Assembly: GCA_016283095.1 (NCBI GenBank)
Contig: JAEEMG010000062.1
Location: 4,694-68,693 of the forward strand
Source of the DNA: Paludibacteraceae bacterium
Lineage (GTDB): Bacteria > Bacteroidota > Bacteroidia > Bacteroidales > Paludibacteraceae
Direction of reading: 5' to 3'
DNA: 64,000 bases
The notes under the pieces were generated by a model. It ran no database searches, was not told the origin of the DNA, and saw nothing but the letters and a program-made list of their open reading frames with translations. A program made the translations under genes and the position numbers. The stretch's first letter is position 1. Each line of letters opens with the position of its first letter. Shown piece after piece: positions 5,200 to 19,405 of the stretch.

Positions 5200-6533
5200 T
5201 GAAAAGAATAGTTGTTTTAGGAGCAGGAGAAAGTGGTGTCGGTTCGGCAATCTTGGCCCAGAAGCAGGGCTTTGATGTTTTTGTGTCGGACATGTCGCCA
5301 ATCAAAGAAAAATATGTGGCTGAACTCAACCAGTATAATATCGCTTGGGAGCAGGGGCAGCATACAGAAGAGTTGATCTTGAATGCGGATGAGGTGATCA
5401 AAAGTCCAGGTATTCCAGAGAAGGCTCCAATCATCAAGAAGTTGAGAGAGAAAGGCATCAACATAATCTCTGAAATCGAATTCGCCGGACGCTACTCAAA
5501 GTCGAAGATGATCTGTATCACAGGCAGCAATGGTAAAACGACAACCACTACACTTGTGCACTATATCTTCAAAGAGGCAGGTCTAGACGCTTCTCTTGCA
5601 GGAAACATCGGTTTCAGCTTGGCACGTCAGGTGGCTATCGATCCTCACGACTACTACATTATCGAGCTAAGTAGTTTCCAGTTGGACGGAATGTATGATT
5701 TCAAGGCAGATATCGCTATCCTGCTCAACATCACTCCGGATCACTTGGACCGTTACGAATATAAGTTCCAGAACTACGTGGATTCAAAGATGCGTATTCT
5801 GCAGAACATGACAGAGAACGACACATTCATCTATTGGAATGAAGATCCTGTCGTGACAAAGGAACTTGCAAAGTATGATATCAAGGCAAAGATGATGCCG
5901 TTCTCGATACAGACAATTGAGAATATGGCAGCTTGCTTGGAGAATGAAAAATTAGTAATCAACTTAAAAAACAATTATATAGATATGGATATTAATAAAC
6001 TTGCTTTGAAGGGACAGCACAACATCTACAATTCAATGGCGGCTGGTATCGCGGCAGGAGTTGAAGGCATCAAGAAGGACACTATCCGTAAGGCATTCAG
6101 TGATTTCAGCGGAGTGGAGCACCGTCTTGAGCCAGTGGCAAAGGTGAGAAGTGTGTTGTTCATCAACGATTCAAAGGCTACTAATGTCAATTCGTGCTGG
6201 TATGCGTTGCAGTGTATGCAGACTCCGGTTGTTTTGATTCTTGGTGGTAAGGACAAGGGTAACGACTACACAGAGATAGAGGATTTGGTAAAGGAGAAGG
6301 TGAAGGCTATCGTATGTCTTGGCGTTGATAATACCAAACTTCATGCTTTCTTCGACGGTAAGGTTGAGAATATTGCAGACGCTGGTTCTATGGAAGAGGC
6401 AGTCAACAAGTGTTTCGCATTTGCTGACAAGGGTGATACAGTGCTTCTTTCTCCATGTTGTGCAAGCTTCGATTTGTTCAAAAGCTACGAGGATAGAGGA
6501 CAACAGTTCAAGGAGTGTGTAAAACGCTTGTAA
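5199..6533 (+). CDS. murD: UDP-N-acetylmuramoylalanine--D-glutamate ligase
   Basis: N-terminal Rossmann GAGESG, Mur ligase P-loop ITGSNGKTTTT. Start overlaps the mraY stop (TAATG). Confidence 0.95.
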   Translation: MKRIVVLGAGESGVGSAILAQKQGFDVFVSDMSPIKEKYVAELNQYNIAWEQGQHTEELILNADEVIKSPGIPEKAPIIKKLREKGINIISEIEFAGRYSKSKMICITGSNGKTTTTTLVHYIFKEAGLDASLAGNIGFSLARQVAIDPHDYYIIELSSFQLDGMYDFKADIAILLNITPDHLDRYEYKFQNYVDSKMRILQNMTENDTFIYWNEDPVVTKELAKYDIKAKMMPFSIQTIENMAACLENEKLVINLKNNYIDMDINKLALKGQHNIYNSMAAGIAAGVEGIKKDTIRKAFSDFSGVEHRLEPVAKVRSVLFINDSKATNVNSCWYALQCMQTPVVLILGGKDKGNDYTEIEDLVKEKVKAIVCLGVDNTKLHAFFDGKVENIADAGSMEEAVNKCFAFADKGDTVLLSPCCASFDLFKSYEDRGQQFKECVKRL

Positions 6534-6534
6534 A

Positions 6535-7776
6535 ATGAGTGAACGCAATGCTTTCTTCAAAAAATTGTTTCTTGGCGACCTCTATATATGGATTGCTATA
6601 GCATCATTGCTCGCAATCTCGGTAATAGAGGTCTACAGCTCTATTCAAGCAAATGTGACAGTCAGAAATGGCGATTATAACAGAGAATTCTATCGCCATA
6701 TCTTTATGATCCTGACAGGACTAGGAATCACCTTGACGGTGGTGCAGGTTGGTGTCAAACGATTGTTCTCATCCAAACTGACGGGTTTTCTTGTCTTAGG
6801 TGCATTGCTGTCGTGGGTGATGCTTCTGTTGACTCCAAAATTTGGCGACCTTGTCAATGGTGCCAGACGAACGATGTTTGGCATACAATGGTCGGAACTT
6901 GTCAAGGTGTTCTATGTGATATTCTTGGCATTTTGGATAGGACAGTATTCCACGGACAAAGGATTGATGCCTACCAAAAAAGGTTGGATCACATTGTTTG
7001 TACTCTATTGCCTATGGCTGGTGCCGATCGGATTGGAGAATATGTCTGGATTGGTGCTGTTGACTGTGGTGACGATCTGTCTGTTGCTGGCTGGAGGACT
7101 GAAATTTAAGCCTTTTTTGTGCATAATGGGAATGTTTCTCTCACTAGCTCTGATTCTTGGTGCCATTGGAGAGTTTGTCCCTGCAGAAAAATTGAAGGGA
7201 ACACCTTTGCATCGTTTGCCTACTTGGGTTTCACGAGTGGAGAATTCATTTTTGGGAGGAAAAGCAGAAGACGACCCTAACCTTAAATTTGTCATTAATG
7301 ATGGAAACTATCAGGTGTCTCATGCAAAAATGGCCGTTGCCAACAGCCATGTGATAGGAAATGGTGTCGCTGGAGGCCGAGAAAGATTCCGTCTTCCTCA
7401 AGCATTTTCGGATTATATTTTTTCGATAATTCTGGAAGAGTTGGGATTATTTGTTGGTTTGTTAGTGATATTTTCCTATCTTTGTGTCTTGTGGCGGGCA
7501 ATTGTTATTGCGTATAAATCAGAAAGTATGGTCTATGCGATGCTGACACTTGCTTGTGCATTATTGATAGTCTTTCAGGCTGTGATAAACATGGCGGTAG
7601 GAGTGGCGTTGGGCGACTTTGTCACAGGTCAGCCGCTGCCTTTTGTAAGCAAGGGAGGTACCTCGATTTGGATGACAGGCATTTTGTTTGGAATAATCCT
7701 TTCGGTAAGTGTCCATGTGAAGACGTTGCAAAACAAAAGGAAGGAGAAACCGATTGTGGTAGAAGAGTCTGAATAG
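6535..7776 (+). CDS. ftsW: FtsW/RodA/SpoVE (SEDS) family peptidoglycan polymerase
   Basis: About 10 TM segments, conserved C-terminal SEDS motif (PLPFVSKGGTS), dcw position between murD and murG. Confidence 0.9.
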   Translation: MSERNAFFKKLFLGDLYIWIAIASLLAISVIEVYSSIQANVTVRNGDYNREFYRHIFMILTGLGITLTVVQVGVKRLFSSKLTGFLVLGALLSWVMLLLTPKFGDLVNGARRTMFGIQWSELVKVFYVIFLAFWIGQYSTDKGLMPTKKGWITLFVLYCLWLVPIGLENMSGLVLLTVVTICLLLAGGLKFKPFLCIMGMFLSLALILGAIGEFVPAEKLKGTPLHRLPTWVSRVENSFLGGKAEDDPNLKFVINDGNYQVSHAKMAVANSHVIGNGVAGGRERFRLPQAFSDYIFSIILEELGLFVGLLVIFSYLCVLWRAIVIAYKSESMVYAMLTLACALLIVFQAVINMAVGVALGDFVTGQPLPFVSKGGTSIWMTGILFGIILSVSVHVKTLQNKRKEKPIVVEESE

Positions 7777-7921
7777 GATTTAAGAGACGTTTGATCTTCT
7801 GCTATGGATTTTGTAGTATTGTGTGTAAAGAATATCCATGCAGATGATTGAGTATAGAGTGTAGTTGAAATAGACAAGCATTTCCGGCTTGGAGGAACAA
7901 AAGAACTTTATTTTAGACAAC

Positions 7922-9034
7922 ATGGCGGCAAACAAAAGATTCATCATCAGTGGTGGAGGTACGGGTGGTCACATATTCCCAGCTATTTCTATTGCTAATG
8001 CGTTAAAGAAACGTTTCCCAGACGGTGAGTTCCTTTTTGTGGGAGCTGAGGGCCGTATGGAGATGGAACGCGTGCCTAAGGCAGGCTATAAGATTATCGG
8101 ATTACAGGTGAACGGATTGGTGAGAAGCATGTCACCGTCAGGAATCCTTAAGAATATCAAGGTTGTCTATCGTTTTGTGAAAAGCTATTTCAAGGCGAAA
8201 TCAATTGTCAAGGAGTTCAACCCAGACGCTGTGGTCGGTGTGGGTGGTTATGCAAGTTGCCCGACACTATATGCCGCAAACAAGCTTGGTGTGCCAACTT
8301 TCTTGCAGGAACAGAATTCATACGCTGGTGTGGCTAACAAATTTTTGTCGAAAGGTGTGAAGAAGATTTGTGTGGCATACGACGGAATGGAAAGATTCTT
8401 CCCTGCTGAAAAACTGGTGATGACTGGTAATCCTGTCCGCCAGGATTTCTTGAATGTGCAGAAGGGAGCTCAGGAGGCATACGATTTCTTCGGCCTTGAT
8501 TCATCAAAGAAAACAATTCTTGTGATTGGCGGTAGCCTTGGCGCCCGCACGGTCAACAACAGTATCATAGCTGGTCTTGACGCTATCAAGCAGAGTGGTG
8601 TGCAGGTGATATGGCAGACTGGCAAATATTACTTTGAAGACGCAAAGAAGAAGGCTGACGAAAGTAATAATCCAAACTTGGTATGTACAGACTTCGTGTC
8701 ACGTATGGATTATGCGTACGCTGTGGCTGATCTTGTTGTGTCGAGAGCTGGTGCAAGTTCAATATCTGAGCTATGTCTGTTAGGCAAACCATCAATTCTG
8801 GTTCCTTCTCCTAATGTGGCAGAGGATCATCAGACTAAGAATGCCATGGCATTGTCTACAAAGAATGCGGCTGTGATGATAAAGGATGCTGAGGCAGTGG
8901 AGAAATTGGTGCCTGAGGCGTTGTGTCTGGTGGCAGATGAAGCGTCGCTCGCATCAATATCTGAGCAGGCATTCGCATTGGCACAGAAAGATTCGGCAGA
9001 CAGAATAGCAAGCGTGATTTTAGGTGAGATTTAA
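7922..9034 (+). CDS. murG: Undecaprenyldiphospho-muramoylpentapeptide beta-N-acetylglucosaminyltransferase
   Basis: ISGGGTGGHIFPA N-terminal motif, C-terminal GASSISEL and EDHQTKNA motifs. ATG at 7922 preferred over the TTG-initiated ORF start at 7889. Confidence 0.93.
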   Translation: MAANKRFIISGGGTGGHIFPAISIANALKKRFPDGEFLFVGAEGRMEMERVPKAGYKIIGLQVNGLVRSMSPSGILKNIKVVYRFVKSYFKAKSIVKEFNPDAVVGVGGYASCPTLYAANKLGVPTFLQEQNSYAGVANKFLSKGVKKICVAYDGMERFFPAEKLVMTGNPVRQDFLNVQKGAQEAYDFFGLDSSKKTILVIGGSLGARTVNNSIIAGLDAIKQSGVQVIWQTGKYYFEDAKKKADESNNPNLVCTDFVSRMDYAYAVADLVVSRAGASSISELCLLGKPSILVPSPNVAEDHQTKNAMALSTKNAAVMIKDAEAVEKLVPEALCLVADEASLASISEQAFALAQKDSADRIASVILGEI

Positions 9035-9045
9035 ATTTTGGAAAA

Positions 9046-10419
9046 ATGCTGGATAAAATTAAAAATATCTACTTTTTAGGAATAGGTGGTATCGGAATGA
9101 GTGCCATTGCCCGTTACTTCAATGCAAAGGGTTATTCTGTGGCTGGCTACGACAAGACAGAAACTGAACTTGCTGACAAACTTCGCAGCGAGGGTATACA
9201 GGTGCACTTTGAGGATAACACAGTGTTCATACCAGAGGATTTCAAGAATCCAAACTATACCTTAGTTGTGTATACTCCGGCAATCCCAGATGATCTTACT
9301 GAGTATCTGTTCTTCAAGAAGAACAATTTCACTATCATGAAGCGTTCACAGATCCTTGGCGCGATAACAAAAAGCCAGGAAGCAATCTGTATCGCGGGAA
9401 CTCATGGTAAGACTACAACTACCACGATGATTGCTCATACTCTTCACAATTCATTCTTGGATTGCAACGCTTTCTTGGGTGGATTGTCAAAGAATTTTGA
9501 AAGCAATCTGCATCTTTCCAATAAGAGCAACTTGGTTGTTGTTGAGGCGGACGAATTCGACCGCTCTTTCTTGACACTTGCTCCACAAATCGCTGTGGTG
9601 ACAGCAACAGATGCCGACCATCTTGATATATATGGCACTTACGAGGAGTATTTGAAGAGCTTTGAACAGTTTGTGGCGCTTATCAAACCAGGAGGTGCGT
9701 TGATTATGAAGGATGGACTTCCTATCAAACCAGTCGTGCAGGAAGGTGTGAAAATCTACACTTATTCTGTGGAGAAGGGAGACTTCCATGCAGAGAACAT
9801 CAAGATCGCAAATGGAAAAATCATCTTCGACGTGGTTTATCCGTTGGGCGTATTGAAGGGAGTAGACTTGGGTGTTCCTGTCTACATCAATATTGAGAAT
9901 GCAATAGCAACATGTGCGGTATCTCTTTTGAAGGGATTGTCTCACGAAGAGATCAGAAAAGCAATAGCAAGTTTCCAGGGTGTGGCAAGACGTTTTGATT
10001 TCCACATCAAGCAGGATAATTTGGTATTGGTTGACGATTACGCACACCATCCGAATGAGGTGAAGGCAAGTATTGAATCGTTGCGCAGATTATATTCGGA
10101 TAAGAAGTTGACGGGAGTGTTCCAACCACATTTGTACACTCGCACCCGTGATTTCGCGGATGAGTTTGCTGCAAGTCTGTCGCTTCTCGACGAAGTGTTG
10201 CTTTTGGATATTTATCCAGCAAGAGAAGAGCCTATTGAGGGTGTGACAAGCCAGATCATTTTGGATAAGGTGACGGCGAAAGAGAAACGTCTCATTTCAA
10301 AAGATGAGTTGCTCGACTATGTCCGCACACATCCAATAGAGGTGTTGGCTACAATCGGAGCCGGTGATGTAAATCTTATGCTTCCGCAGATCAAAAATAT
10401 TCTGTTGTCCAAGGTATGA
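9046..10419 (+). CDS. murC: UDP-N-acetylmuramate--L-alanine ligase
   Basis: GIGGIGMSA Rossmann motif, Mur ligase P-loop AGTHGKTTTT, DDYAHHP motif. Confidence 0.95.
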   Translation: MLDKIKNIYFLGIGGIGMSAIARYFNAKGYSVAGYDKTETELADKLRSEGIQVHFEDNTVFIPEDFKNPNYTLVVYTPAIPDDLTEYLFFKKNNFTIMKRSQILGAITKSQEAICIAGTHGKTTTTTMIAHTLHNSFLDCNAFLGGLSKNFESNLHLSNKSNLVVVEADEFDRSFLTLAPQIAVVTATDADHLDIYGTYEEYLKSFEQFVALIKPGGALIMKDGLPIKPVVQEGVKIYTYSVEKGDFHAENIKIANGKIIFDVVYPLGVLKGVDLGVPVYINIENAIATCAVSLLKGLSHEEIRKAIASFQGVARRFDFHIKQDNLVLVDDYAHHPNEVKASIESLRRLYSDKKLTGVFQPHLYTRTRDFADEFAASLSLLDEVLLLDIYPAREEPIEGVTSQIILDKVTAKEKRLISKDELLDYVRTHPIEVLATIGAGDVNLMLPQIKNILLSKV

Positions 10420-11150
10420 GGAAAAAGTTGCAGATAGCAGGCTTTTGCATATTGGCTATATATGCTCTTGTGATGGTGTTTTTCATTCCGTCTACAGCAG
10501 GGAGTGTATGTTGCACAGGGACAGCGGTGAATATTAACGACAGCGCAGACTATAAGTTTGTGAATAAGATGGACATCCTCAAATACATGAATTCAGCTAA
10601 CATTAATCCAAACGGGTTGAGCTATAAGAATATCAACCTGCACAATATGGAAAAGAAAATAGCTGAAATTCCATTTGTCAAGGATGCTCAATGCTATAAA
10701 AGTCCGGGTGGTCTGTTATGTGTGGATATCCTCCAACGCAAACCGATATTGAGGATAAAGACGCCGACACAGGATTTGTATCTGGATTCGGAAGGCAGTC
10801 TGATGAACACCTCCACAGCATTCTCGGCTTATGTGCCGGTGTTGTTGAGTGAGACGACGCTGGGAAAGAAATATCTGAAGACGGAGATTTATGAGTTTGC
10901 CAACTATGTGTACAACGACAAATTCTTGAATTCACTGGTGGAGCAGATATACATAGATGCCAACGGCAATGTGGAGATGGTGCCACGCATAGGGTCGCAG
11001 ATTGTTGTGCTCGGCTCGACGGAAGGCTACCAAAAGAAGATGGCCCGATTGAGGAAACTCTATGAAAAGGGTTTTTCCAAAGTAGGGTGGAACAAGTATA
11101 AGAAGATAGATCTCACATACGACAATCAAGCTGTGTGTACGAGATATTGA
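10416..11150 (+). CDS. ftsQ: FtsQ-type cell division protein (TM plus POTRA)
   Basis: N-terminal TM, POTRA-like region, 4-nt overlap with the murC stop, located directly before ftsA. Confidence 0.75.
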   Translation: MRKKLQIAGFCILAIYALVMVFFIPSTAGSVCCTGTAVNINDSADYKFVNKMDILKYMNSANINPNGLSYKNINLHNMEKKIAEIPFVKDAQCYKSPGGLLCVDILQRKPILRIKTPTQDLYLDSEGSLMNTSTAFSAYVPVLLSETTLGKKYLKTEIYEFANYVYNDKFLNSLVEQIYIDANGNVEMVPRIGSQIVVLGSTEGYQKKMARLRKLYEKGFSKVGWNKYKKIDLTYDNQAVCTRY

Positions 11151-11201
11151 CAAAGAACAAAGACAAAGAACTAGTAAATACTTTCAAAAATTTTAGTGAA
11201 A

Positions 11202-12611
11202 ATGGCGAATACACTACAATTGACGGACAAAATAGCCGTGGTGCTAGACCTGGGTACCACGAGAATAAGATCTGTGGCTGCTGTCTTAGACGACAACAAT
11301 AAAGTGTCACAGATTATTGCTACAGAAGAGGTGGATTCTAAAGGAGTCAAACATGGTAGAGTGGAAAACTATCTTGTGTTGGCAGGGGTGCTCAAACCGA
11401 TGTTCAACAAACTTTCCAACCGAGTATACAATAAATTCAAGGCTGCTATAGGAGACAGTTTCATTGGAAACACCGTTGAAATCAAAAGCGTATATATTGC
11501 TCTTGGAGGAAAAGGTATATTAGGAAAAGAGCAGAAAGAAGCTTACCGCCTTAACAATCAGTTCGTCGATGTGCCAGTAGTCCAGAAAATAGAGGAGGAT
11601 ATCAGAAAACGTGTTGAAAACGACAAAGAGATAATCTTGGATATGATCAACCAAGGTTACAATGTCGATGACGATATAAAGATGGAGGCTGTAGGTTGTA
11701 GAGCTTCCAATGTAGAGGGCCGTTTTTGTGTTGTCACAGCTGAAAAAGAGATAAAGGAGGATATTGAAAAGACATTGTCGTCAATTAATATCCAATTGGC
11801 AGGTTATTCTCTTTTGCCATTCGCCCTGGCTGATATTATGCTTTCAGATGCCGACAAAGAGGTAGGAGCGACATTGATCGACCTGGGAGCCTCATCGACA
11901 TCAATCGCCATTTATCGTGATAATGTTCGCCGTCACGTCAGAGTGTTGCCATTTGGAAGCAAACTGATCACTAAAGATATCAAAAAAGTATGTGGGTTGA
12001 CAACAGAAGCGGCAGAGAAGGTAAAGAAAAATATAGGTTGCGCCTATCCTGAAGGTTTGAAAGAAAACGTTATAGTCACAGTGGCTGGTACAGATGTGAA
12101 GATACAATCTGTAGAGTTAGCGTCGATTATAGAGGCACGCCTGGAAGAACTTATGTCTTATCTTCTAGGAGAAATGAATAAGGTGAGCGCTTTGACGTCG
12201 TCAAAGAAGATTATCCTTACAGGAAGAGGTTCTCGTCTAGATAAGGTTTGCGATAAATTCACAAATGAGTTTGGCTTGGATACGGAATTAGGAAAGATCA
12301 AAGATGTATGTTATGAAAAATACAGTCCTTATTTCACATCCTTGGATTCTATAAATGGAAACACAGATAAGACAGCTCGTAAGATGAATGATTTTGCCGC
12401 TTGTCTTGGTGTCCTTGAGTCTTGTGCTCTTGACTCTTGTGTCTTTGTAGGCAGAAAGGGGGCCGCAGATGTTAAAACAGGGAAGAAAGCAGAAGGGAAT
12501 GAGAAAAAGGGAGGTGGCTTTATCGCAAAAATCACAAACCTTTTTACTGCAGTGGGTGACACCGCAACTGATATAATTGAGGGATCTGTTAAGAAAACTG
12601 AAGTGAAATAA
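11202..12611 (+). CDS. ftsA: Cell division protein FtsA (actin fold)
   Basis: Actin-fold phosphate motifs VVLDLGTTRIR and LIDLGASSTSI, adenosine motif ILTGRGSRL, C-terminal amphipathic helix GGFIAKITNLFTAV. ATG at 11202 (GTG at 11196 in the track). Confidence 0.9.
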   Translation: MANTLQLTDKIAVVLDLGTTRIRSVAAVLDDNNKVSQIIATEEVDSKGVKHGRVENYLVLAGVLKPMFNKLSNRVYNKFKAAIGDSFIGNTVEIKSVYIALGGKGILGKEQKEAYRLNNQFVDVPVVQKIEEDIRKRVENDKEIILDMINQGYNVDDDIKMEAVGCRASNVEGRFCVVTAEKEIKEDIEKTLSSINIQLAGYSLLPFALADIMLSDADKEVGATLIDLGASSTSIAIYRDNVRRHVRVLPFGSKLITKDIKKVCGLTTEAAEKVKKNIGCAYPEGLKENVIVTVAGTDVKIQSVELASIIEARLEELMSYLLGEMNKVSALTSSKKIILTGRGSRLDKVCDKFTNEFGLDTELGKIKDVCYEKYSPYFTSLDSINGNTDKTARKMNDFAACLGVLESCALDSCVFVGRKGAADVKTGKKAEGNEKKGGGFIAKITNLFTAVGDTATDIIEGSVKKTEVK

Positions 12612-12613
12612 TT

Positions 12614-13966
12614 ATGGATATGGAAGAAAATTTCACATTTGTAGACGACTTTGAAGAAAAGAACATTATCAAAGTGATAGGCGTCGGTGGTGGTGGCGGA
12701 AATGCTACTAACTACATGTATGAAAACCATATTGAAGGAGTAGATTTCGTCATTTGTAACACAGACCGTCAGGCTTTGCGTCGTAGCCCTATTCCTCCTG
12801 AATTTCATATTCAGTTAGGAGAAAAAGGTCTTGGAGCCGGAAACGATCCGAATATGGGACGTCAGGCTGCTGAAGACTCAATAGAGAAAATCAAGTCTAT
12901 GCTTGAGGATACAGAGATGGTCTTTGTCACTGCGGCAATGGGTGGTGGTACTGGTACAGGCGCCGCTCCTGTGATCGCTCGTACAGCCAAGGAGATGGGT
13001 ATCCTTACTGTCGGAATCATAACAATACCGTTTAAGTTTGAGGGACGCCGTCGTCTTCTTAACGCATTGGAAGGAATGCAGAGGATGAGAGATGCTGTCG
13101 ACGCGATTGTCGTAATCTCAACAGACAGATTCCGTGAATTGTATGGCGACCTTGGTCTGAAAGCTGGTTTCTCTAAGGGCGACGAGATTTTGGCCATGGC
13201 AGCTAAAGGTATTGCTGAAATCATCACTGGTGATGGTTATGTTAATGTGGATATGAATGATGTCCGCACCGTCATGACAGATTCTGGTGATGCTTTGATG
13301 GGATTGGCAATGGCTTCCGGACCTGATCGCGCGGAGAAAGCGATCAAGGAGGCTTTGAATTCACCATTGCTTATCAACAACAGTATTGAAAAAGCTAAGA
13401 ATGTCTTGTTGAATATCTCTTATTCATCTGATTATGAGGTGACAATCGACGAGACTACATATATCTGTAATTATGTACAGGAGCAGATCGAGGGCCACGG
13501 AGCAAACTTGATTTGGGGTGCTACCATTAATGAAGGACTTGGTGAAAACCTTAATGTCACTGTTGTGGTCACTGGTATGAACGTTGATGAGTCGGATTTG
13601 ACAGGTGATGTCCAGATGACACAGACGTCGAATTACGGTATGTCTGCACGTGCCGCAATGGTTCAGACGGATGTGAGAGCAGACCGTTATTTGGGAGGCA
13701 GTCACGTCGTCCCTCAGAATAATAATCCTGGTTTCTCTATGACTAATGCTGAAATTGATAAGTTCTACGAAGGTCATTCTGCAAAGAAACCAGAACCAAC
13801 TCCTATACCGGTTCCAGAACCAACTCCAGTAGTTCCGGAACCAGAACCAGAACCGGAGCCAGAACAGATTCCGGAACCAGTTAAAGAGCCAGAACCAGTT
13901 GACGCTGGTCCAAGAATACCATCTAGAGAGATAGATTTGAATTCAATTGACGACGACGATGATTGA
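12614..13966 (+). CDS. ftsZ: Cell division GTPase FtsZ (copy 1; Pro/Glu-rich linker and poly-Asp C-terminus)
   Basis: T1 GVGGGGGNA, T4 GGGTGTG, T7 NVDMNDVRTVM. The central RELYGDL...AAKGIAEIIT segment looks like the usual Bacteroidetes FtsZ. Immediately follows ftsA. Confidence 0.93.
   Translation: MDMEENFTFVDDFEEKNIIKVIGVGGGGGNATNYMYENHIEGVDFVICNTDRQALRRSPIPPEFHIQLGEKGLGAGNDPNMGRQAAEDSIEKIKSMLEDTEMVFVTAAMGGGTGTGAAPVIARTAKEMGILTVGIITIPFKFEGRRRLLNALEGMQRMRDAVDAIVVISTDRFRELYGDLGLKAGFSKGDEILAMAAKGIAEIITGDGYVNVDMNDVRTVMTDSGDALMGLAMASGPDRAEKAIKEALNSPLLINNSIEKAKNVLLNISYSSDYEVTIDETTYICNYVQEQIEGHGANLIWGATINEGLGENLNVTVVVTGMNVDESDLTGDVQMTQTSNYGMSARAAMVQTDVRADRYLGGSHVVPQNNNPGFSMTNAEIDKFYEGHSAKKPEPTPIPVPEPTPVVPEPEPEPEPEQIPEPVKEPEPVDAGPRIPSREIDLNSIDDDDD
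13790..13900 (+). repeat. Coding low-complexity Pro-Glu repeat (PEPTPIPVPEPTPVVPEPEPEPEPEQIPEPVKEPEPV) in the FtsZ copy-1 linker
   Basis: Reiterated ccagaacc/ccggaacc units visible in the DNA; in frame with ftsZ. Confidence 0.8.
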
Positions 13967-15338
13967 GACTCTTGAAATAGCTAATTCTGACAAAACGTTT
14001 ATCAAGGTGATAGGCGTTGGTGGCGGTGGCGGTAATGCTGTCTCTTATATGTATAAAGCGGGAGTTGAAGGTGTTGACTTCATCCTGATGAATACAGATA
14101 AGGCGGCGTTGAAGCGTTCGTCCGTTCCTAAACGAATCCTGCTCGGCAAGAAAGGCCTTGGTGCAGGATCGGATCCTCGTATCGGTAAGGCGGCAATGCT
14201 TAGTGTGGAAGAAAATGTCAGACAGTTGCTATCTGAGGATACAGAGATGGTTTTTGTGACCGCCACATTAGGTGGTGGCACGGGTACAGGTGGAGCTCCT
14301 GTAGTCGCACGTGTGGCTAAGGAACTCGGTATCCTTACTATCGGTGTCGTCACAACTCCGTTTTCTTATGAAGGTCCGATCAGAAAGGCAATCGCTGAAG
14401 AGGGAGTGCGAGAGATGAGAAAATATGTCGATTCTCTTGTGATTATATCTAACGACAGATTGTCGTCGCAATCTAAGGATAGGAACGCATTGTCGCAATC
14501 AATGAAACTATCTTCAAGTTTTGCGGCGTCTGATTCTATTCTTGCCACTGCTGCTCAATGTATCTCCGATATGGTGACTCAGTCTGGTTACGTCAATGTG
14601 GATATGAATGATGTCCGCACCGTCATGACTGACTCTGGAGACGCGGTGATCGGATCGTCTGTGGCAGCCGGTGAATATCGTGCTATGCAGGCTATGCGTG
14701 AGGCTCTTACTTCGCCATTGCTTGTCAATAATGATATACGTAATGCCAAGAGTATTCTGGTGAACTACCTATATTCGGATAAGGAAGTCACAATTGACGA
14801 GTTGTCTGAAACGATGGAGATGGTTCAGATGAAGGTCGACGACGATGTCACTATCATTTGGGGAGCAAGTCAGGTGGAAGGCATGGGGGATAAATTGAAA
14901 ATCTCTGTTGTTGTCACAGGACAATTGTTGGCGGAGGATAAACTTGTGGGAGCGGTCTCTGATGTCTTTGTCCCTGTGAAATTTCCAGATTCTCCTAAAA
15001 AAGAAGTGGAGACAAAAAAGAAAGAGGAAGAAATACCGGTTGTTGTCACAATAGAAGACGAAGTAATAGGAGACGACGGAACTGTTGGGCAATCGGTGCC
15101 TACGCCAACTCCTACTACATTCATGCCTACAGAGGCTCACGACACAACTGTGACAAGGAAAAAATTGACACCTAAAGTGTTTGGTGATGAAGATGCAGAT
15201 GAGACTCCTGCATATACCCGTACAAAGACAGTTGTCGCGGAACGTAAGGCAGAACCGACGTCTTCTTTCACTGTCAAACTTGACGGAGAGGAGATAAAAA
15301 TGGGGGATAACAGATATCTCTCAAACAGACCAGATTAA
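13959..15338 (+). CDS. Second FtsZ-family GTPase, tandem paralogue of ftsZ
   Basis: Complete FtsZ core: GVGGGGGNA, GGGTGTG, SNDRL, NVDMNDVRTVM, VVVTG. ATG at 13959 overlaps the ftsZ stop (ATGATTGA); the track begins at TTG 13947. Own divergent C-terminal tail. Confidence 0.85.
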   Translation: MIETLEIANSDKTFIKVIGVGGGGGNAVSYMYKAGVEGVDFILMNTDKAALKRSSVPKRILLGKKGLGAGSDPRIGKAAMLSVEENVRQLLSEDTEMVFVTATLGGGTGTGGAPVVARVAKELGILTIGVVTTPFSYEGPIRKAIAEEGVREMRKYVDSLVIISNDRLSSQSKDRNALSQSMKLSSSFAASDSILATAAQCISDMVTQSGYVNVDMNDVRTVMTDSGDAVIGSSVAAGEYRAMQAMREALTSPLLVNNDIRNAKSILVNYLYSDKEVTIDELSETMEMVQMKVDDDVTIIWGASQVEGMGDKLKISVVVTGQLLAEDKLVGAVSDVFVPVKFPDSPKKEVETKKKEEEIPVVVTIEDEVIGDDGTVGQSVPTPTPTTFMPTEAHDTTVTRKKLTPKVFGDEDADETPAYTRTKTVVAERKAEPTSSFTVKLDGEEIKMGDNRYLSNRPD

Positions 15339-15362: not shown

Positions 15363-15812
15363 ATGGCATTGTTTGATGTTATTAGCGAGGATATAAAGAA
15401 GGCGATGATCGCCAAAGACAAAGTGGCTTTGGAGGCATTGCGTGGTGTGAAAAAAGAGTTTCTTGAGGCAAAGACTGCCAAGGGAGCAAGTGGAGAACTT
15501 GCTGACGACGCTGCATTGAAGATTCTTCAGAAGATGGTGAAACAGCGTAAGGAGTCTGCACAAATCTTCACAGAGCAGAACCGTCCTGAGTTGGCTCAGA
15601 ATGAGTTGGCTGAGGCAGCTGTGATCGAGAAGTATTTGCCAGCAAAGTTGTCTGACGCTGAACTTGAGGCTGAGATCAAGGCAATCATTGCTGAAGTTGG
15701 CGCAAAGACAGCTCAGGAGATGGGCAAGGTGATGGGTGTCGCAACAAAGAAGCTTGCTGGTAAGGCAGACGGAAAGGAAATTTCAGCAAAGGTGAAGGCA
15801 CTTCTTAGCTAA
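15363..15812 (+). CDS. GatB/YqeY domain-containing protein
   Basis: 149 aa all-helical protein. The N-terminal segment (DIKKAMIAKDKVALEALRGVK...) is typical of the YqeY family. Confidence 0.8.
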   Translation: MALFDVISEDIKKAMIAKDKVALEALRGVKKEFLEAKTAKGASGELADDAALKILQKMVKQRKESAQIFTEQNRPELAQNELAEAAVIEKYLPAKLSDAELEAEIKAIIAEVGAKTAQEMGKVMGVATKKLAGKADGKEISAKVKALLS

Positions 15813-15880: not shown

Positions 15881-15912
15881 GAGACGTGGCATTGCTGCGT
15901 CTCTTTGTTTTT
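15881..15912 (+). terminator. Rho-independent terminator ending the dcw/yqeY transcription unit
   Basis: gagacgtggc-att-gctgcgtctc forms a 10-bp stem (2 G-U pairs) followed by tttgttttt. Confidence 0.75.
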
Positions 15913-16031: not shown

Positions 16032-16859
16032 ATGAAAACAGAAGAGATTAAAGACCTGTTTCAAAAATTCGAATCAATCGCATGTGATTACGAAGGTGTT
16101 GAATGTTGGAGTGCCCGCGAACTGTGTGGGTTGCTTGGGTATGCCAAGTGGGAACGTTTCGAGGGGGTGATTGCCAAAGCGAAAGAGGCATGTTTGAATG
16201 CTGGAGAAAAAATTGAGGATCATTTTCCCGGCGCCGGGAAAATGATCGAGATCGCCAAAGGAGCTCAAAGAGAGGTTGACGACTACATGCTCACACGTTA
16301 TGCGTGTTATCTTGTGGCTCAGAATGGAGATCCGAGAAAGCCTGAGATCGCTTTTGCTCAGAACTATTTTGCTGTACAGACACGTGTGGCGGAAATGGTA
16401 GAGAAAAGACTCCTTGAGTTTGAGAGAGTGCAGGCTCGGCAAAAGTTGGCAGAAACAGAGAAACGTCTGTCTGGAGTGCTTTTTGAACGAGGTGTTGATA
16501 GCAAAGGTTTTGCTATGATACGTTCCAATGGCGACAAGGCATTGTTTAATCTTGACACAGCAATGTTGAAACGGAAAATAGGAGCTCCTTCAAATCGTCC
16601 CGTCGCAGATTTCTTATCAACGATCAACATCAAAGCAAAGGATTTTGCCGCAGAGATGACCTCTGTAAATGTCCAACAAAAAGACTTGTTCGGAGTGACT
16701 CAGATAGACAACGAGCATGTGGAAAATAATCTTGCCGTCAGAAATATGATGCTCGACAGAGGCATTGTCCCAGAGAATCAACCAGCTGGTGAGGATGTGA
16801 AGAAAGTGGAACGTCGATTGACATCGGAAGAGAAAAAAGTTTTGTCGAAAAGAAAATAG
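16032..16859 (+). CDS. dinD: DNA damage-inducible protein D (DinD) family
   Basis: N-terminal half matches the DinD pattern ([22 protein letters not shown]...[33 protein letters not shown]). Confidence 0.75.
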
Positions 16860-16896
16860 TGAGATTTAAATACACGATTGTGTTGGCATAATTTGT

Positions 16897-16931
16897 AGAG
16901 ACGTGATTCTGTCGCATCTCTTTACTTTTTT
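16897..16931 (+). terminator. Probable intrinsic terminator after dinD
   Basis: agagacgtg...cgcatctct imperfect stem (one mismatch) followed by ttactttttt. Confidence 0.5.
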
Positions 16932-17066
16932 AGATGGATAATTACATCAAAATGGCTGTTTGCATATGTTACGAAAAATGCATTCGTTTAATAATAAAAA
17001 ATAAAATTGTTACATTTGTGGTGTAGAAACGCTAATAAAAACAATTCATTTTAAGCAAGTAGCAAT

Positions 17067-18053
17067 ATGGAAATCAAAAAAGGAGACTGGGTATTATATG
17101 ATGATAAAATCTCGCAAATCATTGATGTATATTCTATCAACTATGAGAAATTTGACTCCGAAGTGAAAGTAGATGAGACTAACTACGGAAAACTCAAATG
17201 CAAATATTTCCTTATACGGGATTTATGCACCATTGAAGGCAAACTTGTTTCTGGGAAACCATACATAGTGTTTATCGAAAGCTTCTTTGAAACTCTTGAA
17301 GAAGAGGATTTGCAGGTGTTAGAAAAAATCAAAAAAGAAAAAAAAGAAAAGTATGCGGAATGGGAAAGCAAAGAAGTCAACGCAAAAACGAAAGAAGTTG
17401 AATTATATTTCTCTGTGGAAGTTAAGCCGAAAGAAGGGGCCAACATTTTGAAACATTTTAAGAAAATATGCAAACAATTACCGAGTCTTTTCTCATTTGC
17501 TGAACTTGTGGAAAAAGCTTCACAGTTAGACATTGATATGACAACATGTGTAGATGATTATCAGGCATATGACAATCAAATATCGTTTACGTTAAAGTTT
17601 TACTTAGACGACATTAAAGATGGTGTCGTTTATTACCATAAAGTGTGTGAATTTGATTATACGGACGCAGAGGAGGATGCAAAATTGCTGGAGAACTTTT
17701 TCACATATGAATCGTTGTTCATTTCAATTGTCTTGTTTTTGAACAGATATACATCTGAGGAAACTGATGAAAACGCACAAACATTCAAAGCAGACATGAA
17801 GACTGCCGCCACTGCTTTGATGAATAAGAAGCTAAAAAACAGTGAACTCGCGAAACTATACTACGATTTTGTTCCCAAAAAAACATTCACGAAGGAAGAG
17901 TCCTTTGATTTGTTCAAACAATTCATCGACATGAACAAACAAAAGTATAATTTAGAAAAACTCTGTCAAACCATCGAAGAAAAACACGACTGGTCGGTCG
18001 AAGTCTATAACTTAAGCTACGATTACGCTAAGGAAATGTTTTCATTAGTATGA
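17067..18053 (+). CDS. Hypothetical protein (Lys/Glu-rich, no motif recognised)
   Basis: 328-aa ORF in an A/T-rich stretch. A TAcaTTTG -7 box lies at 17011-17018, 49 nt upstream. No family recognised by eye. Confidence 0.5.
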   Translation: MEIKKGDWVLYDDKISQIIDVYSINYEKFDSEVKVDETNYGKLKCKYFLIRDLCTIEGKLVSGKPYIVFIESFFETLEEEDLQVLEKIKKEKKEKYAEWESKEVNAKTKEVELYFSVEVKPKEGANILKHFKKICKQLPSLFSFAELVEKASQLDIDMTTCVDDYQAYDNQISFTLKFYLDDIKDGVVYYHKVCEFDYTDAEEDAKLLENFFTYESLFISIVLFLNRYTSEETDENAQTFKADMKTAATALMNKKLKNSELAKLYYDFVPKKTFTKEESFDLFKQFIDMNKQKYNLEKLCQTIEEKHDWSVEVYNLSYDYAKEMFSLV

Positions 18054-18106
18054 TGACTATGCTGCCAAATTCAGAAACTCGATTGGCTTCTGAATTTGGC
18101 ATTTCT

Positions 18107-18565
18107 TTACATTTTCCTGTACACAATCTTCGGAATCACCGGCTCAACCGCGTCTCTCAGGAATTCATCGAAATCTTCATAGTCGTTGAAGCAGAGTCTG
18201 GTGACGGTGGTTTCTTTCTTCAACAGACAGAAATATCCGTACACATCTTTGCCGTCTCTGCCTGTGCGTACATAATCAAGGTAGTAGCCGTCGAACTTCT
18301 TCAAGTCTACCTCACCTTCCTTAATCAATCCGAAGAATCTGCTCACTTTGAGAACAGTACCGTCTACTTCAAGGCTTCTGCTCTGCATCACAAGTCGATA
18401 GATAAGAAAACCTACGAATATCACCGCAAAGACGGAAAATATTATCCACCAATGTGTTGGCACGTCGCTTGGCATTATCGAAAGAACCAATCCGCAAATG
18501 GCTGGCATTAATACGAAAATAGCTGTGATGTAGTAGAATCTGGGTCTGAATTTAGTCTTTGTCAT
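18107..18565 (-). CDS. Hypothetical membrane protein (2 TM plus small soluble domain)
   Basis: Two clear hydrophobic helices (YYITAIFVLMPAICGLVLSI, WWIIFSVFAVIFVGFLIY). Preferred over the overlapping + strand ORF 18050-18511, which has no such features. Confidence 0.5.
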   Translation of the reverse strand: MTKTKFRPRFYYITAIFVLMPAICGLVLSIMPSDVPTHWWIIFSVFAVIFVGFLIYRLVMQSRSLEVDGTVLKVSRFFGLIKEGEVDLKKFDGYYLDYVRTGRDGKDVYGYFCLLKKETTVTRLCFNDYEDFDEFLRDAVEPVIPKIVYRKM

Positions 18566-18679: not shown

Positions 18680-19405
18680 ATGAATAGACTAACGGCTCAG
18701 GTGAAAGAAAAATTGTCGGGATTGAAGCTTAAGGCTGTCCTCTTTGATATGGATGGAGTAATCTTTGATTCGATGCCGCATCATGCTGTAGCATGGGTGA
18801 AGGCGTTTATCGACGAGGGTGTTGATTTCAATGAGTATGAGGCCTATAAGCGTGAAGGAATGACTGGCTTCGCTACTATTCAGGAGATGTTTCTTGCTCA
18901 GAAAGGGCGTGAGGCAACGAAGGAGGAGTGCGAAAGAATTTACGCTACAAAGTGCAAATATTTTGAGCAGGAGGGTCCTGCCGACGTGATGACTGGCATA
19001 CGTGAGGTGCTTGAATTTGTGCACGACGCTGGTTTACAGATCTTTATCGTGACTGGCTCAGGTCAGCATAGTCTGTTTGAAAAACTAGACTCTCTTTTCC
19101 CAGGTATATTCGCTCCTGAGAGAATGGTCACTGCCTACGATGTGAAAAAGGGCAAACCGGATCCAGAGCCTTACTTGATGGCATTGAAGAAAGGTGGATT
19201 TTCTGCAGATGAGGCTATTGTGGTGGAGAATGCTCCGCTTGGAGTGACATCAGCTCATGCCGCTAAGATTTTCACTGTGGCGGTCAACACTGGAATCCTG
19301 CTTCCGGAGGATTTGTTGAGTAAGGGAGCAGACGTCTTGTTTGATGATATGCATGAGTTTAGAAATGCACTTCCTGAGATTATAAACTTTGGTTTGAAAA
19401 AATAA
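18680..19405 (+). CDS. HAD-IA family hydrolase (beta-phosphoglucomutase-like phosphatase)
   Basis: HAD motif I FDMDGVIFDS, motif II TGS, motif III/IV K...ENAPLG. Confidence 0.85.
   Translation: MNRLTAQVKEKLSGLKLKAVLFDMDGVIFDSMPHHAVAWVKAFIDEGVDFNEYEAYKREGMTGFATIQEMFLAQKGREATKEECERIYATKCKYFEQEGPADVMTGIREVLEFVHDAGLQIFIVTGSGQHSLFEKLDSLFPGIFAPERMVTAYDVKKGKPDPEPYLMALKKGGFSADEAIVVENAPLGVTSAHAAKIFTVAVNTGILLPEDLLSKGADVLFDDMHEFRNALPEIINFGLKK

Follow-up and report, generated by a model that had tools for sequence, protein, structure and literature searches.

Two tandem full-length FtsZ paralogues with complementary C-terminal tails in the division operon of gut-associated Paludibacteraceae

The Z ring of bacteria is usually said to consist of a single FtsZ (PMC3494859, PMC8142252). 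Bacterial ftsZ has been duplicated independently at least five times, with the resulting paralogues often being truncated, and Bacteroidota are not mentioned in this context (bioRxiv 10.1101/2025.09.29.679267). Here we analyse a 64,000-nucleotide stretch of DNA from a Paludibacteraceae bacterium (contig JAEEMG010000062.1, positions 4,694 to 68,693), referred to below as the window, in which two complete ftsZ genes lie back to back at the end of the dcw cluster of genes for division and the cell wall. The gene in first position is called copy 1 (A when orthologues are compared), the one in second position copy 2 (B), and the window's own clade is termed clade S. Carriers of the pair are uncultured gut Bacteroidales of the family Paludibacteraceae represented by metagenome-assembled genomes (MAGs). 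The whole lineage, which is abundant in herbivore guts, has kept both full-length FtsZs in its division operon. That both are selectively maintained and have cleanly divided between them the short docking motifs normally found on one FtsZ tail is unusual for a bacterium and resembles the situation in chloroplasts and archaea.

The nearest functional analogue appears to be the plastid pair FtsZ1 and FtsZ2 of the green lineage (red algal FtsZA and FtsZB), followed by archaeal FtsZ1 and FtsZ2. The plastid proteins co-assemble and their C-terminal motifs have diverged functionally (PMC3494859, PMC11285052), with FtsZ2 alone keeping the tether-binding C-terminal motif and binding ARC6 (PMC3494859, PMC8142252, PMC11285052). 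Like the genes described here, they are GTPase-competent duplicate paralogues, one with a conserved C-terminal peptide (CTP) for the tether and the other with a different motif; our motif counts likewise reveal differentiated C-terminal motifs, with a single paralogue keeping the tether-binding peptide. For the plastid pair, however, one shared ring and distinct roles in stability and turnover have been demonstrated, whereas co-assembly of the present pair is suggested by sequence. Moreover, the tether is ARC6 for plastid FtsZ2 and presumably FtsA here, and the plastid paralogues are eukaryotic nuclear genes, unlinked and of cyanobacterial descent, whereas those in the window are direct neighbours that overlap within a bacterial dcw operon. 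In Haloferax volcanii, both FtsZ1 and FtsZ2 are needed for normal division and only one is linked to SepF (bioRxiv 10.1101/2020.06.04.133736, PMC8187382); this archaeal duplication predates archaeal diversification (PMC9871819). Again there are two full-length FtsZs with divided labour, one of them linked to an anchor, but the archaeal genes are very ancient, unlinked and use another anchor, whereas the present pair is young (family level), tandem and bacterial. As is characteristic of such paired FtsZs with divided labour, the two paralogues are retained under purifying selection across the lineage.

Among bacteria, FtsZ1 and FtsZ3 of the Hyphomicrobiales are extra FtsZ-family GTPases without a canonical CTP and in this respect similar to copy 1; Sinorhizobium FtsZ2 and Magnetospirillum FtsZm are further CTP-less paralogues. 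These alphaproteobacterial proteins, however, usually comprise the GTPase domain alone, are encoded away from the dcw ftsZ and act as non-essential modulators. By contrast, neither copy in the window is reduced to its GTPase domain or encoded elsewhere: both are full-length, have long linkers and belong to the ftsA operon, and it is the CTP-less copy that is more conserved. Finally, BtubA and BtubB of Prosthecobacter are adjacent and co-transcribed tubulin-superfamily paralogues that form heteropolymers. They share with the present pair the arrangement of two adjacent, here probably co-transcribed, members of this superfamily, but are tubulin-like rather than FtsZ and stand outside the divisome and the dcw cluster (BtubA/BtubB are also mentioned in PMC9871819).

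The two genes and their junction are located as follows:

12614..13966, + strand: ftsZ copy 1, 450 amino acids, ATG start (TIGR00065, core dN/dS, AlphaFold2)
13959..15338, + strand: ftsZ copy 2, 459 amino acids from its ATG (TIGR00065, core dN/dS, AlphaFold2)
13959..13966, + strand: overlap of copy 1 stop and copy 2 start, ATGATTGA, the second ATG lying within the last codons of copy 1

In a mechanically produced list of open reading frames (ORFs), copy 2 begins with the TTG at 13947; the ATG at 13959, however, is conserved in all orthologues and is taken as the start. The overlap ATGATTGA implies translational coupling of both ftsZ copies. An earlier note on this DNA, made from the letters alone, had proposed just such a pair of intact tandem FtsZ paralogues with a stop/start overlap at the end of the dcw cluster, and the ORFs bear this out. 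Its estimate by eye of 50-60% identity in the core agrees with the 53% found by BLASTP (172/327 identical, E=3e-96), where similarity is limited to the core. Both proteins clearly belong to the FtsZ family: Pfam Tubulin (PF00091) matches at 2.3e-43 for copy 1 and 2.8e-40 for copy 2, FtsZ_C (PF12327) at 3.4e-21 and 1.3e-19, respectively, and both exceed the cut-off of the NCBIfam ftsZ equivalog TIGR00065 (327.2 and 317.9 bits; cut-off 295.2). The best PDB matches are FtsZ chains (253 bits), and AlphaFold2 (AF2) predicts confident FtsZ cores for both copies, with core pLDDT mostly >90.

Within these cores, the following segments are informative:

13235..13276, + strand: T7 loop of copy 1, GYVNVDMNDVRTVM, with the catalytic N-x-D-x-x-D intact (motif alignment)
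14586..14627, + strand: T7 loop of copy 2, identical in protein sequence to GYVNVDMNDVRTVM of copy 1 (motif alignment)
13115..13132, + strand: T6 segment of copy 1, ISTDRF, with enterobacterial N165 changed to Thr and L168 to Phe
14361..14378, + strand: T5 variant of copy 2, FSYEGP, the canonical form being F-x-F-E-G-basic
14445..14489, + strand: T6 segment of copy 2, ISNDRL, followed by the H6 insertion SSQSKDRNA, which sits after L169 of enterobacterial FtsZ

In the motif alignment both copies keep the T1, T4 and T7 motifs, as the earlier note had read them, with T1 (GGGGGNA) and T4 (GGGTGTG) being invariant in both copies across clade S. The T7 sequence GYVNVDMNDVRTVM does not vary among the aligned clade-S loci and copy 2 orthologues and was matched in 20/20 sequences from ten clade-S genomes. 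In the window, the two copies also have the same EVTIDE strand-loop segment. Gene conversion at T7, where the copies share a 35-nt identical run of DNA, was considered and rejected: A-A, B-B and A-B comparisons in ten genomes all give about 7-8 differences per 60 nt, and because distances within and between copies are equal, the identity reflects constraint rather than conversion.

The T6 difference noted before (ISTDRF in copy 1, ISNDRL in copy 2) is real, with N165T and L168F being fixed in clade-S A copies. The T6 Asn is otherwise nearly invariant, occurring in ≥90% of the FtsZs in an alignment of 101 sequences. T5 of copy 2 is fixed as FS(Y/F)EGP in all orthologues aligned. The 7-residue insertion that had been reported for copy 2 of the window is also genuine. 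An insertion at this site, 3 to 7 residues long and mostly of 5, occurs in 14/14 aligned clade-S B sequences and is absent elsewhere, i.e. it is specific to clade-S B copies. In the AF2 models, H6 of copy 2 is extended (165-175) and leads into a loop of low confidence (176-183), and that of copy 1 is short (171-177). In an FtsZ filament, one longitudinal face of each subunit holds the GTP pocket, which is lined by T1-T6 and H6 and receives the T7 loop of the next subunit. The two copies would thus share their bottom face (T7, EVTIDE) but present distinct top faces around the GTP pocket.

Selection on the two copies was estimated from the ratio of non-synonymous to synonymous substitutions (dN/dS; Nei-Gojobori method, ten genomes of clade S), the values being approximate because synonymous distances are near saturation (dS ~1.0-1.4):

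core dN/dS: copy A 0.039, copy B 0.062
tail dN/dS: copy A 0.19, copy B 0.27

The core ratios indicate that both copies are under strong purifying selection.

An aspect that goes beyond the earlier note is that the C-terminal tails of the two copies differ and are complementary. An ordinary Bacteroidota FtsZ ends with '...E.PAY.RR...S+f.L...NNSFLHDNVD', i.e. the CTP and then a terminal module. In the closest single-copy relatives (P0136 and P0138), one tail contains four elements in the order YYG motif ('VGAYYGN'), acidic segment ('VILDMDDDSHVDRMES'), CTP ('IPAYMRKR') and terminal module ('...SRFSIG...DYLHNSVD'). In the window, these elements are distributed over two proteins of 450-459 amino acids with tails of about 130 residues each:

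13751..13783, + strand: YYG-type motif of copy 1, EIDKFYEGHSA, residues 380-390 (retained from the ancestral tail)
13787..13900, + strand: Pro/Glu-repeat linker of copy 1 (PEPEPE...), predicted by AF2 to be disordered
13925..13963, + strand: acidic C-terminus of copy 1, REIDLNSIDDDDD (compare 'VILDMDDDSHVDRMESIPAYMRK' in P0136)
15198..15227, + strand: CTP of copy 2, DETPAYTRTK, residues 414-423 (aligned by the tail model to the canonical 'E.PAY.R+')
15258..15335, + strand: terminal module of copy 2, TSSFTVKLDGEEIKMGDNRYLSNRPD, residues 434-459 (homologous to the '...S+f.L...NNSFLHDNVD' end)

The acidic REIDLNSIDDDDD of copy 1 is the counterpart of the acidic segment ahead of the CTP in the single-copy relatives, and the protein stops where the CTP would start. 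DETPAYTRTK in copy 2 is predicted to be a CTP of the FtsA-binding type. That this division is systematic became apparent from motif counts in 15 A and 15 B sequences from three sub-clades (clade S, L015/L016 and L021-L023):

YYG-type motif: A 15/15, B 0/15
strict CTP: A 0/15, B 12/15
terminal module: A 0/15, B 15/15

The remaining three B copies, all from the L021-L023 sub-clade, show APNW, SPNW or SPNI in place of the strict CTP. The YYG-type motif is also present in single-copy P0136 and P0156. A profile hidden Markov model (HMM) built from 115 canonical Bacteroidota tails aligns end to end with clade-S B tails (E 4e-5 to 4e-3 at Z=1000; L013_B, at E=1.3, is the exception) and does not match A tails even at E≤10. 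A folded terminal module is predicted by AF2 in copy 2 only, namely a beta-hairpin plus a short helix with pLDDT 62-74; the tail of copy 1 is predicted to be disordered except for weak helices at 345-360 (early linker) and 378-384 (ending at the start of the YYG motif). A Pfam scan of the isolated tails found no domain; the lone match, to PARP, was below threshold and due to the PE repeats of copy 1. The distribution of the tail motifs is a textbook case of subfunctionalization, in which short linear motifs were partitioned by complementary loss after duplication. It also suggests that two elements of Bacteroidota FtsZ tails, namely the YYG motif and the '...NNSFLHDNVD' module at the terminus, can function as separate units.

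The linkers differ in character as well, being rich in Pro/Glu dipeptides in copy 1, a feature kept across the clade, and rich in Lys, Glu and Thr in copy 2, such that the end motifs of the two subunits would sit on physically different spacers. The terminal module follows the CTP in most Bacteroidota FtsZs (P0021, P0022, P0035, P0081 and others) and corresponds to no Pfam domain, and we found no paper dealing with the 'S+f.L...NNSFLHDNVD' sequence. A third tail layout occurs in Paludibacter-type single-copy FtsZs (P0156, P0184, P0189, P0200; L024:5001-6305), in which a YYG-type motif (YYG or YYP) is followed by an acidic 'SLDDLENDxxL' stretch and, at the end, by the CTP 'IPAWKRK', the terminal module being absent. 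In this neighbouring lineage the module has thus been lost independently of the duplication.

We consider it probable that the two genes represent a subfunctionalized tandem pair whose products form mixed filaments in one Z ring, with copy 2 serving as the membrane tether. An ancestor of a gut-associated part of the Paludibacteraceae duplicated ftsZ in place, and both copies have since been kept as working GTPases. From an ancestral tail with YYG-type motif, acidic segment, CTP and the Bacteroidota-specific terminal module, copy 1 lost the CTP together with the terminal module, retaining the other two elements, and copy 2 retained the CTP and the terminal module but lost the YYG motif. Both would co-assemble as mixed protofilaments of a single Z ring, as suggested by identical T7 and EVTIDE segments, the shared operon and translational coupling. 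The CTP of copy 2 would attach this polymer to FtsA and the membrane; a role of the CTP in membrane-anchor binding is established (bioRxiv 10.1101/632075). Copy 1, with its slower-evolving core, would provide the bulk of the polymer and recruit a partner that reads its YYG motif and acidic tail, and, having no CTP, it probably relies on copy 2 for tethering. Because the bottom faces are identical and the top faces unlike (copy 1 bearing N165T and L168F, copy 2 an altered T5 and the H6 insertion), affinity and GTPase rate are probably not the same at the four possible longitudinal interfaces, a difference that would tune filament turnover. If co-assembly occurs, 'polymer' and 'tether-binding' functions would naturally reside on separate subunits. 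In the laboratory these functions are separated artificially, with CTP-deletion mutants.

More tentatively, the Z ring might even be obligately two-component, which is conceivable though somewhat doubtful. Tethering would then depend on copy 2 and a second interaction, via YYG motif and acidic tail, on copy 1, and with one shared bottom and two top faces, the polarity and turnover of a filament would be determined by the order of its subunits and by GTPase rates specific to each interface. If true, such a ring would be a bacterial counterpart of alpha/beta-type specialization within the FtsZ family.

An important question is whether the two FtsZs might instead act separately, with one being the true Z-ring protein and the other forming its own polymer or, as a soluble protein, modulating or inhibiting division, similar to the accessory paralogues of Hyphomicrobiales or the magnetotactic FtsZm. 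It is in line with this alternative that most FtsZ paralogues known from bacteria have accessory roles and lack the tail (bioRxiv 10.1101/2025.09.29.679267), that copy 1 has no CTP and that the differences in the top faces could equally well lower cross-assembly. However, both copies are full-length with long linkers and are translationally coupled within the dcw operon, the T7 and EVTIDE loops are identical in both, and the tail motifs are split in a complementary manner rather than merely lost from one copy. Moreover, the copy without a CTP is the one whose core evolves more slowly, the reverse of the expectation for an accessory paralogue. Separate action thus seems rather unlikely.

The origin of the subfunctionalized pair was approached with neighbour-joining trees (302 core columns, simple distance corrections, bootstrap), in which the P0136 single-copy group joins A and B in a common clade against other Bacteroidota with 89.5-96% bootstrap support, the Paludibacter-type FtsZ falling outside. 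Across the three sub-clades, A grouped with A and B with B at weak bootstrap values of 43-64%, and B cores are 1.1-1.6 times further than A cores from seven single-copy outgroups. An independent duplication in each sub-clade was rejected, since A and B of the same lineage appeared as sisters at 0-2% bootstrap under two distance corrections. Gene order and tail anatomy are alike in all three sub-clades, and because core phylogeny, gene order and tail anatomy agree, the pair is best read as the product of one old, ancestral in-place tandem duplication, with neither transfer nor repeated duplication involved. It would thus represent a young, datable and reconstructable example of how plastid-like or archaeal-like FtsZ pairs can arise.

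That copy 2 was instead acquired horizontally from another Bacteroidota lineage and inserted beside the resident gene would account for its canonical-type tail, which resembles tails from outside the Paludibacteraceae, and its top-scoring non-orthologous database matches are indeed long FtsZs of the canonical kind, for example P0021 and P0022. Yet the core of copy 2 is closest to copy 1 (53% identity versus 44-47% for P0021 and P0022), and the trees place all A and B copies in the clade that includes the P0136 lineage. Since P0136 bears the canonical tail inside this clade, the tail is ancestral and no import is needed. Core trees and the P0136 tail together argue against this scenario, which we reject as highly improbable.

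A database search with copy 2 retrieved 18 full-length orthologue clusters with 68-97% identity, all from Paludibacteraceae/Bacteroidales MAGs, after which scores fell sharply from 637 to 340 bits. An exact-sequence look-up of the window's copy 2 found it not to be on record, the closest relatives (L005, L006) being 97% identical. Clusters at 90% identity hold up to 121 members from many contigs. When one genome per GTDB species was scanned, the pair was present in nine species representatives (L005-L013), with sources including rumen and horse faeces and with 'Candidatus Scybalocola fimicaballi' among them. The block ftsA-ftsZ-ftsZ-yqeY recurs in several independent assemblies from different studies and hosts, and the junction is exactly ATGATTGA in 11/11 clade-S loci, though copy 2 identity drops to 68%. 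More distant Paludibacteraceae (L015/L016 and L021-L023) also carry two adjacent ftsZ genes between ftsA and yqeY, spaced by 5-19 nt without overlap, such that the pair was found in every examined locus of the three sub-clades. Single-copy relatives with the frame ftsA-ftsZ-yqeY are the Paludibacter-type (P0156, L024) and the P0136 lineage (L025).

Thus, the survey of relatives called for by the earlier note revealed a pair that is confined to part of the Paludibacteraceae rather than order-wide, with the Paludibacter-type and P0136 lineages being single-copy. The possibility raised in the same note that the pair is a long-recognized feature of the whole order also does not hold, as no paper mentioning it was found; literature searches on ftsZ with Paludibacter, Bacteroidetes/Bacteroidota, paralogues and dcw duplication yielded no paper describing the pair. 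Annotation pipelines name the genes 'cell division protein FtsZ' or 'FtsZ family protein'; the genes are thus already annotated, yet the pair and its split tails appear to be undescribed so far. Although every sequence comes from metagenome assemblies, an assembly or binning artefact, or a decaying functionless copy 2, both of which the earlier note had wanted checked, has a negligible probability and is rejected, as the arrangement is identical in many independent assemblies (at least 11 independently assembled loci plus clusters with dozens of members), copies only 53% identical in protein cannot be mis-joined reads of one gene, and frames are intact everywhere, with copy 2 motifs conserved and its core dN/dS being 0.06.

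Several points weigh against a subfunctionalized pair with copy 2 as the tether. All carriers are uncultured MAGs, the tail HMM gave modest E-values, and dS is close to saturation as stated above. Reciprocal monophyly of A and B is weakly supported (40-64%) by neighbour-joining trees with simple distance corrections, and these trees leave the deep order of A, B and single-copy P0136 unsettled. Copy 1 might bind FtsA or another tether via a non-canonical motif. Furthermore, B copies of other sub-clades have degenerate CTPs and altered T7/T4 motifs, so that the assignment of B as the tether may fail family-wide.

The pair is far more diverged in L015 (L015:4556-5926 and 5932-7413) and likewise in L016. 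Here the first copy has a T7 'NISITD', in which the first catalytic Asp is lost, and a T6 'TSERI', both copies have a T4 'GKGTGTG', and the second copy shows a T1 'GGGGCNA' and a T3 'GSGTGGD'. One subunit of this pair may therefore be GTPase-impaired. The second copies of the other distant sub-clade (L021:7414-8775, L022:7573-8946, L023:7405-8793) have a T7 'G(V/I)CTDMED' or 'GTDMQD' and a T4 'GKGTGTG', end with '...FL(D/N)NNVD' and are labelled merely 'FtsZ family protein' by the PGAP annotation pipeline.

The ftsZ pair is embedded in the gene order murG-murC-ftsQ-like-ftsA-ftsZ-ftsZ-yqeY on the + strand of the window:

7889-9034, + strand: murG (ORF list, gene context)
9046-10419, + strand: murC (ORF list, gene context)
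10416-11150, + strand: ORF of 244 amino acids in the ftsQ position, overlapping the murC stop
11196..12611, + strand: ftsA, the presumed membrane tether (Pfam FtsA 6.1e-20)
15363..15812, + strand: yqeY-like gene (Pfam YqeY 8.7e-46), in equivalent position in all loci
15881..15903, + strand: terminator-like hairpin with a 10-bp stem and a T-run, the first such site downstream of ftsA

Only 2 nt separate the ftsA stop from the start of copy 1, and 24 nt separate the end of copy 2 from yqeY, which closes the conserved block ftsA-ftsZ-ftsZ-yqeY; ftsA occupies the equivalent position in all related loci. A scan for terminator-like sites from ftsA onward found none before the end of yqeY. Given the short gaps, the overlap and the position of the first terminator-like site after yqeY, it is likely that ftsA, both ftsZ genes and yqeY are co-transcribed and that translation of the ftsZ pair is coupled. 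A scan for sigma-70 promoters gave matches at background level and was uninformative; Bacteroidota promoters differ from the sigma-70 consensus. Rfam and tRNA scans of the window gave no matches. The ORF in the ftsQ position (10416-11150) has no Pfam match at E≤0.01, and the gene in this position is likewise without annotation in related loci.

Downstream of yqeY, a variable spot (16032-18565) extends towards a gene for a HAD-family hydrolase (18680-19405). The window has there one gene whose product contains a Bro-N domain (16032-16859), along with two ORFs that gave no Pfam match. Since relatives carry unrelated genes at the equivalent spot (L004, for example, has ATPase_2/DUF234, PIN_3 and NERD, and L001 and L002 have others), this region looks like a hotspot of integration or exchange.

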